A DNA stretch of 63,962 bases, the filler included, from Licmophora abbreviata (taxonomy: Eukaryota), in assembly GCA_900291995.1 (NCBI GenBank). It is 7 parts of 7 records of this genome, joined end to end, with 100 filler letters (N's around TTAATTAATTAA, not from the genome) between each part and the next. Parts side by side here need not be neighbours in the genome. Positions count along the whole stretch, not along the records: positions 46,496 to 54,239 come from OLMU01000187.1; 6 more parts are not named here. One strand, given 5' to 3'. Below, piece after piece: positions 51,038 to 53,550 of this stretch. Position 1 is the stretch's first letter. Each line of letters begins with the position of its first letter. The notes under the pieces were generated by a model. That model ran no database searches and was not told the DNA's origin. It was given only the letters and a program-made list of their open reading frames with translations. A program made the position numbers and the translations under genes.

Positions 51038-53550
51038 ATGTCGCACTACGGAGATTCTCGAGGCGGCGACAGTTCCTCTCGACGGTGAGACACAAAGCGG
51101 CGTACGAATGTCGCGAGGAGAGTTTTGAAACCCCGGTCGAATTCGCGCTGATTCTGTTTTTCTCTCGTTTTGATTCTACTTCGCAGCACTGGTGGCTACG
51201 TAGGAGGCTCCGCGTACGGTGGCAGCTCCTATGGCGGCGGAGGCGGCCATTATGGCGGTGGGTGGATCTTATGGTGGTGGGGGAAGCTATGGTGGCGGAG
51301 GGGGCTACGGTGGTGGCGGAGGAGGATACGGCGGAGGAGGAGGCTTCGCTGATTCAGGACTCGGCGCGGGTCTGTCTAACATCGACTTCTCCCGACAGGA
51401 GCTCGTGCAGTTCGAGAAAGACTTCTACATTGAACACCCCGACGTCTCAAAGCGATCTGATTCGGAAGCTGAAGCTTGGCGCGCCTCTAAGCAGATTGTC
51501 GTGGTCGGAACTGGTGTCCCGAAGCCTTGTTTGACTTTCGAGGAAGCTTCGATGCCCGAATATGTTCTCAACGAAGTCATGAAGTGTGGCTTCGACAAAC
51601 CCACGCCGATCCAGAGCCAGGGGTGGCCCATGGCTCTCAAGGGACGTAACATGGTGGGAATTAGTGCCACTGGTAGCGGAAAGACTCTCGCTTTCTTGCT
51701 TCCGGCCATGATTCACATCAATGCTCAGGTAAGTTCTATTGCGACTTTTCGTTGGCACATTGTGCTGTGCCAAGGAGTCTAGAGCATGAGTGGGCAGTAC
51801 GACTGCACATCGCGTCTGCTCGACAGGATCAAATATCCCCATTGCCCAGATGCTGTGCTGTATTCGTTGTGAATCTTGTTACTGCTTCGACTGTATCGGC
51901 AATTGCCATTCTCTAGTCGTCGCAGTCCACGATATTTCACTACAAGCGGCGAGTGTATGTCGCGAGGGGCGCCGACAAGCCATACCAGAATTGGATTCCA
52001 TCGTGCAGCTAGCATGCATGTGTTCTTTCGGTGCCTTTCTCGTCATCGACGACGTGTCTACACTCTTGCGCATGTCTCAGTGAGACTCGGATTCGCGCAG
52101 CATCTGCCCCACGCCCGTTGCTTACTTGTACATGTAAGTGATGGAGTAGTGGGATGGAGAAGTTCGATCCGGTCGAACGAGACTGTGCAACTGCTACAAG
52201 GATATTATCATGCATCAGGGCAGTAGCGTCCACGCGTGGACTTGTCCATCACTTCAAGTTCAACGAGGGTTAGACTCCATGCAGAACACAATCGCGGGCG
52301 ACTACTTACACAAATTGCATTATCTGTTCTCTCTTCAGCCGTACCTGAAACCAGGAGAAGGCCCGATTTGTCTAGTACTGAGTCCCACTAGGGAACTCGC
52401 AGTGCAGATCAAGGAGGAATGTGACAAGTTCGGGGCGTCGTCTGACGTGAAGAACACTGTGGTGTATGGCGGCGTTCCCAAATCGCGTCAGATTCGCGAC
52501 CTTCGCTCTGGCGTCGAGATTCTCATTGCAACTCCAGGCCGTCTCATTGATCACCTGGAGCAGGGGAATACAAACTTGAAACGTGTCACGTACCTTGTAA
52601 TGGATGAAGCCGACCGGATGCTTGACATGGGGTTCGAACAGCAGTAAGTGTCTGAGATGCGTGAATCTTTTGCTTCACTCTCAATCGTTGCCCCACGGAA
52701 CACCAGAACCGCCTTTCTTACCTCCTTCTCTCACCTCTGTCACTTGCAAACAGGATTCGCAAGCTTGTCAGTCAGATTCGCCCCGACCGTCAAGTTCTCA
52801 TGTGGAGCGCGACGTGGCCCAAGGAAGTTCAAGGGCTTGCTCGTGACTACTTGCAGGATTTCTACCAAGTGACGGTCGGCTCTCTCGATCTTACGGGCAA
52901 CAAAGATGTGACGCAAACTATTGAAGTCTGCACGGACCAGGACAAGTATCGCAACCTGCTCCGTTATCTGAAGGAGAACTTGACTCCCAAAGATCGCGTC
53001 CTTGTCTTTGTAGAAACAAAGAAAGGGTGCGACATGCTCACGCGGTCTCTTCGCATGGACGGATATCAGGCCCGTGCGATGCACGGCGATAAGAGTCAGG
53101 AAGAACGTGACTGGGTTCTCCGCGAATTCAAGAACTGTCAGTCGCCACTGATGGTCGCCACCGATGTCGCGGCCCGCGGTCTCGACGGTAAGTCGACATG
53201 CATTGTTGGGGCGCTGTTCTATTGGTGACTGTTTTTTTTGGATTGCTTATTTATTTTGCTGTGACGTTTGTCGTTGCTTAGTTTCCGACATTCGTTGTGT
53301 CGTCAACTTTGACTTCCCCAACGACATGGAATCCTACGTTCATCGCATCGGCCGTACGGGCCGTGCTGGAAAGAAAGGGCTTGCCATCTCTTTCTTTGTC
53401 GCCGACAAGAACGCTCGCGTGGCTCGTGAGTTGATCGAGATCCTTCAGCGCACCCAGCAGAATATCCCTCCCGAGCTGGCTGCCATGTCCAGCTTTTCTG
53501 GCGGACGCGGCGGTGGTGGTCGCGGACGTGGCCGAGGTCGTCGATACTAG
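51038..53550 (+). CDS. DBP2: DEAD-box RNA helicase DBP2/DDX5 (introns 51085-51186, 51729-52338, 52644-52753, 53188-53281; apparent frameshift at ~51260)
   Basis: Motifs [59 protein letters not shown] and [13 protein letters not shown]-rich N-terminus and RGG tail. Confidence 0.96.

Follow-up and report, generated by a model that had tools for sequence, protein, structure and literature searches.

Why does a helicase gene whose other introns are of ordinary size keep one that is far longer? The question is raised by a DBP2/DDX5-type DEAD-box helicase gene of the diatom Licmophora abbreviata (GenBank assembly GCA_900291995.1), which lies on the + strand of a stretch of 63,962 nt, joined from seven parts and hereafter called the window, along which all positions are counted. 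One intron of this gene measures 610 nt, compared with 110 and 94 nt for the two other clear introns. An earlier note on this DNA had remarked on the disproportion (about six times the local norm, which holds within the gene) and proposed that it is a structured switch, in which folding conceals splicing signals whose use leads to a nonsense transcript. We find that the long intron holds an internal 5' splice site (the internal donor), that the donor and the hairpin in which it is paired are conserved in 12 introns with compensatory changes, and that the homologous donor appears to be used in relatives; the proposal of a structured switch is upheld to that extent. With moderate confidence we read the intron as a splicing switch, in which a hairpin masks an alternative 5' splice site, use of the site would give stop-containing transcripts, and the opener would most likely be DBP2 itself.

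A long intron conserved in position and length

The helicase carries the Pfam domains DEAD (PF00270, E 3.8e-10) and Helicase_C, with an RGG/RG tail at the C-terminal end of the protein. Protein searches return diatom proteins as its closest relatives (88-91% identity, none above 91% among the matches listed), and several of these are named DDX5 or DBP2 by their own sources. The long intron sits between motif I and motif Ia, about 230 codons upstream of the short intron at ARGLD/V (a slash marks a splice junction throughout).

Metagenome contigs were searched with a DNA pattern for LPxMIHINAQ followed by GT, which returned 84 loci (denoted by L and a number; open reading frames, ORFs, by P and a number). 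Near-identical copies (16, at 85% identity or more over 150 nt), four spliced contigs and the loci cut before exon 3 were dropped before lengths were counted. In the 44 non-redundant complete loci the intron at this position has a median of 662 nt (interquartile range 441-945, range 127-1715), and it reaches at least 300 nt in 42 of them. The other introns, 30 from 19 of these genes, have a median of 85.5 nt (interquartile range 70-99) and a maximum of 300 nt. At 16 loci no other intron was found downstream of the long one. The junction is visible in predicted proteins as well: HINAQ is followed by V (GTN) in 119 of 120 short ORFs of relatives (gene calls on their DNA end just inside the intron), and the junction motif in 131 longer proteins reads HINAQ+V in 42, runs on into exon 3 in 88 and reads AS.. 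in one. The long intron is present too at loci with exons most similar to Ectocarpus, Heterosigma or Phaeothamnion proteins; by these sequence affinities the trait seems older than the diatoms.

The internal donor is paired in a covarying hairpin

A sensitive blastn search detects one conserved island in the window intron, at 52115-52168, matched in L003 and, through L003, in L024 and the L028 family. Against the 84 loci blastn gave no full-length alignable relative of the intron, only this island. It corresponds to a hairpin (Table 1) which in relatives takes the form of a 5' arm CCGUUGCUU(A/G)C and a 3' arm made of GUAAGU and about 5 further nucleotides, the two separated by a loop of 5-25 nt. 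Twelve distinct introns contain it (the window, L003, L008, L023, L024, L027, L028, L037, L063, L011, L055 and L069), three copies identical to L028 and one of L055 being left out of the count. A search with the 5' arm only recovers the same twelve together with L006 and L062. Identity to a Pseudo-nitzschia protein is 94-95% for L055, L060 and L069. The 5' arm of the hairpin, CCGUUGCUUAC, resembles the 5' end of U1 small nuclear RNA.

The internal donor is a consensus 5' splice site paired in a helix that is backed by covariation. RNAalifold, applied to a MAFFT alignment of the twelve (A1), independently gives the identical 11 pairs of the core helix. Standard pairs fill 97.0% of the 132 alignment cells, and five pairs have changed on both sides (for example, from C-G to U-A). 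None of 500 column shuffles reaches the observed values, and sliding the partner by 1-3 columns leaves pairing of only 23-49%. The GUAAGU hexamer is paired in the minimum free energy (MFE) structure in 12 of 12; its P(unpaired) does not exceed 0.018, and the segments have energies between -27 and -37 kcal/mol. The site itself is invariant: GTAAGT, for which 0.15 occurrences are expected by chance inside an intron of this length, is present at the internal donor in all twelve introns, compared with three of twelve for the authentic exon-2 donors of the same genes.

A covariance model built from A1 has a single match in the 64-kb window (52085-52168, 50.3 bits). Outside the window its matches are confined to the loci on which it was trained, copies of these and, at a weak level, L039 (GUUAGU, E 0.03); among the Q-type (Thalassiosira-like) and non-diatom loci it finds nothing but this weak match. 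In the hairpin introns the internal donor lies 126-263 nt before the 3' end, and the sub-intron that starts there comes much closer in size to an ordinary intron than the full-length intron does.

Apparent use of the internal donor in relatives

Four contigs and three ORFs of relatives are taken to be transcripts spliced at the internal donor. In L006 and L062, the sequence runs from exon 2 through the upstream part of the intron, then the 5' arm and loop, and continues directly in exon 3 (..CCGTTGCTTGCAATAGATTGT/CCTTAT..); no AG stands at the boundary. L046 follows the L040 intron colinearly over its first 455 nt and joins exon 3 exactly where L040 has GTG/GTAAGT; L050 has the same junction to exon 3, both belonging to a Thalassiosira-like lineage. 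The ORFs P0004 (LLAPVIFC/PYLKPG), P0016 (LLAIYC/PYLKPG, 40 member sequences) and P0115 (VACITN/PYLKPG) place codons of the 5' arm directly before exon 3. We read the contigs as transcripts because the junction falls exactly at the donor, no AG precedes exon 3 and in-frame stops are present. Every visible relative transcript keeps the upstream part of the intron (the search pattern could catch such forms only), as would be expected of an alternative 5' splice site more than of a cassette. The alternatives are unproductive throughout, as none of 48 introns lacks an in-frame stop.

Some loci and ORFs depart from this pattern. The Thalassiosira-like (QYLKPG) loci have another donor context, ..GGAAGTG/GTAAGTG (position 456 of the L040 intron), which does not match the hairpin model and is where L046 and L050 are spliced. 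Three distinct loci of non-diatom type without the diatom hairpin, L033 (intron position 803), L044 (706) and L047 (658), share an invariant 16-nt island, CAGTACGTACCGCGTG. A pyrimidine-rich run precedes this island, and in it an acceptor-like and a donor-like site stand back to back within the same long intron. Best internal donors were listed in 32 of the 33 introns lacking the hairpin; these are candidates and share no common element. P0005, from Attheya, has a 29-residue insert in frame between HINAQ and QYLKPG. Its explanation as a short retained intron was dropped, as the last codon does not end in AG, and the sequence of the insert suggests an in-frame alternative-donor isoform. P0288, which reads HINAQ+KAKYSLL, has the sole tail among the 120 short ORFs that does not start with V.

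Folding of the whole intron

The intron folds more stably than any other 610-nt stretch of the window. Its MFE is -221.9 kcal/mol, compared with -193.3 +/- 5.6 kcal/mol in 60 dinucleotide shuffles (z = -5.1, none of the 60 as low), and a separate run with 20 shuffles gives z of -4.74. Its GC-corrected folding energy is the lowest in the window (residual z -3.4), with none of 95 other non-overlapping 610-nt windows as low. The fold keeps a z of -3.1 when the hairpin region is removed; by part, z is -2.5 for the 5' part alone and -0.6 for the 3' part, and the reverse complement gives -3.4.

The two long-range helices named in the earlier note are both present, one of 12 bp (Table 1) and one of 8 bp, in which GGAGTCTA (51774) pairs with TAGACTCC (52271), but they do not exceed what chance provides. 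Helices of at least 12 bp with at most one G-U occur in 6.8% of 500 shuffles (P = 0.068), which makes the longer one marginal. The intron has 12 helices of at least 8 bp compared with 8.9 expected from shuffles, and the shorter helix is expected by chance. The perfect complement of the donor arm at 52245-52254, likewise within chance, could still form a structure competing for that arm.

A model of the switch and its alternatives

The way in which a masked donor might regulate its own gene can now be outlined. As long as the hairpin at 52108-52153 is closed, the authentic donor at 51729 would be spliced to the acceptor at 52338 and the helicase mRNA would result. Once the hairpin is opened, the internal donor, about 205 nt before the 3' end, would be used instead, because it is closer to the acceptor and its sub-intron is nearer to normal size; we infer that opening raises the use of this donor. 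The upstream 405 nt, or a piece of them, would then stay in the mRNA and bring in a stop (the TAG at 51780, or the TGA at 52081 if a cassette form exists), and the unproductive transcript would presumably be degraded. The helicase that most likely opens the hairpin is DBP2 itself, which would give a negative feedback loop. We infer this role from analogy and because the element is located exclusively in the DBP2/DDX5 gene. The hairpin probably senses DBP2 unwinding activity, and a feedback switch placed independently, as had been suggested for this intron, is plausible.

A wider reading, which we hold tentatively and with slightly less than even confidence, is that diatoms, or ochrophytes, have a sensor of their own. 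A U1-like strand would sequester a decoy 5' splice site, the intron would be kept long for this purpose, and unwinding by DBP2 would lead to a non-coding mRNA; this would be a third independent invention within one helicase family, after those of yeast and plants, and the three would differ in the intron used or in the splice site that is masked. The diatom switch probably arose independently of the plant one, and ochrophyte algae in general may perhaps share the sensor, with other sequence elements.

Several points weigh against a DBP2-opened switch in this intron. The status of the relatives' contigs as transcripts is taken from their sequence, and use of the internal donor is seen in relatives only, not in Licmophora. 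The DNA pattern required GT after exon 2, and forms that include the cassette or are fully spliced would have escaped it. The outer stem surpasses flank-shuffled controls only to a moderate degree (mean z -1.5; for the window z -1.46, with 17 of 200 shuffles as low), and the other 33 of 45 non-redundant complete introns have no match to the hairpin model except the weak one in L039 (E 0.03). The rules of nonsense-mediated decay (NMD) in diatoms are not established here. Lastly, the opener could instead be temperature, another helicase or transcription speed.

This last point extends to an alternative that we regard as unlikely but the strongest of those considered: the masked donor is a real regulated switch that reports something other than DBP2, such as temperature, general unwinding capacity, another RNA-binding protein or transcription speed. 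The structural evidence fits it equally, temperature would affect a stem of about -30 kcal/mol, and many of the contigs come from metagenome records without a known setting. In plants, opening of the corresponding stem without the helicase DRH1 is insufficient, which hints at further factors. What speaks against this alternative is the location of the element, found only in the DBP2/DDX5 gene (one model match in 64 kb, all matches in this intron), and self-regulation is therefore the simplest reading, as in plants and as proposed for yeast.

Somewhat less probable still is the anatomy that the earlier note had drawn, a 53-nt poison cassette between an acceptor ending at 52080 and the donor at 52134-52139, each in its own hairpin and the whole closed by the 12-bp and 8-bp helices. 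All its motifs are present where they had been placed, including the inverted repeats GTCTCA-G-TGAGAC (52074-52086) and CTTAC-N8-GTAAG (52121-52138), both long-range pairings (51847-58 with 52095-106, and 51774 with 52271) and the in-frame TGA, and inclusion would give a premature stop, since TGA is the first codon and 53 nt shift the frame. Among acceptors up to 200 nt upstream of the internal donor, the AG at 52080 has the highest score, and the Pseudo-nitzschia-like L011, L069, L055 and L027 have an AG with a pyrimidine tract aligned 35-59 nt upstream of the donor. Acceptors of at least 10 bits occur 25-100 nt upstream in L024, L011 and L006 (3 of 13), P0288 could be a cassette form, and the plant system yields both cassette and alternative-site forms. 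Other findings speak against this anatomy. The acceptor TGTCTCAG scores 5.8 bits, compared with 2.8-15.3 bits for the 44 true acceptors from which the matrix was built, and 38% of control windows in the same intron hold one as good. In the 13 hairpin introns compared, the highest-scoring acceptor found 25-100 nt ahead of the donor does not surpass those of control windows in the same introns (mean fraction as good 0.46), and among the hairpin introns neither the acceptor position nor the palindrome is conserved. By arithmetic, about 0.15 palindromes of 6+6 with a 1-nt spacer are expected in 610 nt, and more than one if any short spacer is allowed. The long-range helices add little (P = 0.068 for the 12-bp one; about nine helices of 8 bp expected per shuffle), and four of four relative contigs keep the upstream part, in a search biased that way. 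Of the two splice sites said to lie in hairpins, then, the donor stands by conservation and covariation in 12 diatom DBP2 introns, and the acceptor palindrome has neither comparative nor statistical backing. The observation is partly confirmed and its interpretation partly supported; the cassette half of that model is possible but unsupported, and competition between two 5' splice sites is the simpler common mechanism.

We consider it very unlikely that the hairpin has no regulatory role, being either part of a constitutive, stepwise removal of an over-long intron or the silencer of a cryptic site. The downstream sub-intron (126-263 nt) is nearer to normal size, and partially spliced contigs could be intermediates. 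Against this, the internal-donor junction (..ACAT/CCGTAC) regenerates no acceptor, so that the remainder is not productively removable, and recursive splicing was rejected on the same ground. A merely harmful cryptic site would mutate away, but GTAAGT is kept in 12 of 12 introns as the authentic donors drift, and the length of the intron is itself conserved (42 of 44 lineages). Most improbable is a separate non-coding RNA that owns the hairpin, such as a small nucleolar RNA (snoRNA) or the precursor of a small RNA: snoRNAs are often encoded in long introns, but Rfam 15 on 50900-53700 gave no match at E of 10 or less except a chance-level snoR101-like one at 52211-52275 of the minus strand (17.4 bits, threshold 40 bits, E = 2.9, wrong strand, outside the hairpin), so the snoRNA-host idea was dropped. 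The invariant hexamer is a splice-site consensus that appears to be spliced in relatives.

Comparison with known systems

The stem-paired 5' splice site has a precedent in tau exon 10, where DDX5/p68 is the proposed opener that gives U1 access. The tau site resembles the diatom one in being paired in a stem with a DDX5-family helicase proposed to open it; it differs in being a trans target in an animal gene and belonging to a coding exon, whereas the diatom site lies in the pre-mRNA of the helicase itself and its product is non-coding. One over-long intron kept in a DBP2-family gene is also a feature of yeast DBP2 and human DDX5, where the conserved intron sits at the motif V position, ARGLD/V. 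The long intron of the window is elsewhere, as had been noted earlier, and its own ARGLD/V intron has only 94 nt. In yeast, dbp2 intron 2, whose position and length are conserved as far as humans, is poorly spliced; in S. cerevisiae a helicase-dead mutation relieves retention of the DBP2 intron, which hints at autoregulation, and in S. pombe the dbp2 mechanism involves Mmi1-directed nuclear decay (PMC4695336, citing Barta and Iggo 1995 and Iggo 1991). The available part of that article describes no hairpin-masked internal donor (PMC4695336).

The mechanism proposed here is not new in kind, as the DEAD motif of land plants works likewise and a masked 5' splice site is a variant of it. The plant motif is a hairpin of 19-20 bp with a loop of 3-5 nt, in a long intron of DRH1 (RH14)/RH46, and covers an alternative 3' splice site with a conserved AG (bioRxiv 10.64898/2026.01.23.701338, Burgardt et al. 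2026; PMC12218528, Sack et al. 2025). It responds to DRH1 helicase activity and produces NMD-sensitive variants, as established with disruptive and compensatory changes, helicase-dead protein and NMD mutants; the RGG/RG tail gives DRH1 its specificity, and the closest human homologue of DRH1 is DDX5 (bioRxiv 10.64898/2026.01.23.701338). Both systems thus place one conserved stem-loop in an unusually long intron of a DDX5/DRH1-type helicase gene, both stems cover an alternative splice site whose use gives transcripts with premature termination codons, the coding form being the default, and both proteins end in an RGG/RG tail. The diatom hairpin differs in its dimensions, with a core of 11 bp (18 bp when the interrupted outer stem is included) and a loop of 5-25 nt (8 in the window). 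It differs also in what it masks, an invariant GUAAGU 5' splice site with no conserved AG found, whereas the plant stem masks the AG of a 3' splice site. Dependence on the helicase is demonstrated in plants and would hold by analogy in the diatom. The plant authors, whose data set was Viridiplantae, describe the DEAD motif as plant-specific and not found in algae, and close by suggesting that such sensors may be commoner (bioRxiv 10.64898/2026.01.23.701338). A report of such a switch in diatoms was not found in the literature searched, which left most subscription journals outside its coverage.

DBP2/DDX5 helicases reshape RNA structure transcriptome-wide, and in yeast, plants and animals alike their dosage is critical. 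Only recently, and in land plants, has a helicase-sensing hairpin been demonstrated; the diatom element would be a second case, in a distant lineage and with opposite polarity, the 5' rather than the 3' splice site being masked. Convergent evolution of RNA-based self-measurement would be directly testable in transformable diatoms, because covariation extends across 12 introns and apparent spliced transcripts are at hand in relatives. The switch would account for the persistence of one intron at roughly eight times the length of its neighbours, also in genes that have lost their other introns. Were the hairpin temperature-dependent, it could adjust the supply of helicase to the RNA-folding load that cold or warm water imposes. 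Annotators can use the covariance model to recognise non-coding isoforms of the gene in algal transcriptomes.

Features of the locus

The features of the helicase gene and its long intron are collected in Table 1.

Table 1 Positions in the window of the exons, introns, splice sites and RNA structures discussed
Feature	Position	Strand	Basis or remark
Exon with DEAD domain, motif I region	51187..51728	+	Pfam DEAD, diatom proteins; 5' limit uncertain (frame break near 51262)
Long intron, 610 nt, phase 0, GTAAGT...TTCAG	51729..52338	+	window sequence, relatives' ORFs
First in-frame stop if the 5' part of the intron is retained: TAG, codon 18	51780..51782	+	
12-bp helix, one G-U	51847..51858 with 52095-52106 (abuts hairpin base)	+	marginal
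Palindrome GTCTCA-G-TGAGAC, holding the candidate acceptor AG (52079-52080)	52074..52086	+	no support as splice site
Candidate cassette, 53 nt, first codon TGA, shifts frame	52081..52133	+	use as cassette unsupported
Extended hairpin	52108..52153	+	MFE, RNAalifold, covariation, covariance model
Outer stem, interrupted (18 bp with core)	52108-52114 with 52146-52153	+	MFE
Core helix, 11 bp; loop 52126-52133 (8 nt)	52115-52125 with 52134-52144	+	MFE, RNAalifold
Internal 5' splice site GTAAGT, every base paired within the hairpin's 3' arm; 205-nt downstream sub-intron	52134..52139	+	P(unpaired) 0.001
Alternative partner of the donor arm, perfect 10-bp complement of 52136-52145	52245..52254	+	P(at least 10 bp) = 0.48, within chance
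Likely branch site TACTTAC, its A 30 nt upstream of the 3' splice site	52303..52309	+	CTAAC/CTCAC blocks at the same place in relatives
Next exon, starts PYLKPGEGP, ends GFEQ(Q)	52339..52643	+	window sequence, comparison
Second clear intron, 110 nt	52644-52753	+	
Third clear intron, 94 nt, at ARGLD/V	53188-53281	+	

The Gly/Tyr-rich N-terminal coding region (51187-51300) switches frame near 51262. This break is either a 1-nt assembly indel or a real frameshift, with translation from the ATG at 51231, and it may be the reason why the protein searches gave no identical protein. Runs of N, each of 44 nt and paired 12 nt apart, are found at 17330-17429, 35711-35810, 46396-46495, 54240-54339, 61222-61321 and 62440-62539 and are filler between the joined parts. 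Upstream of the helicase gene, an ORF on the minus strand (50315-50689) holds a ribosomal protein S21 domain of bacterial type (PF01165, E 1.1e-16).

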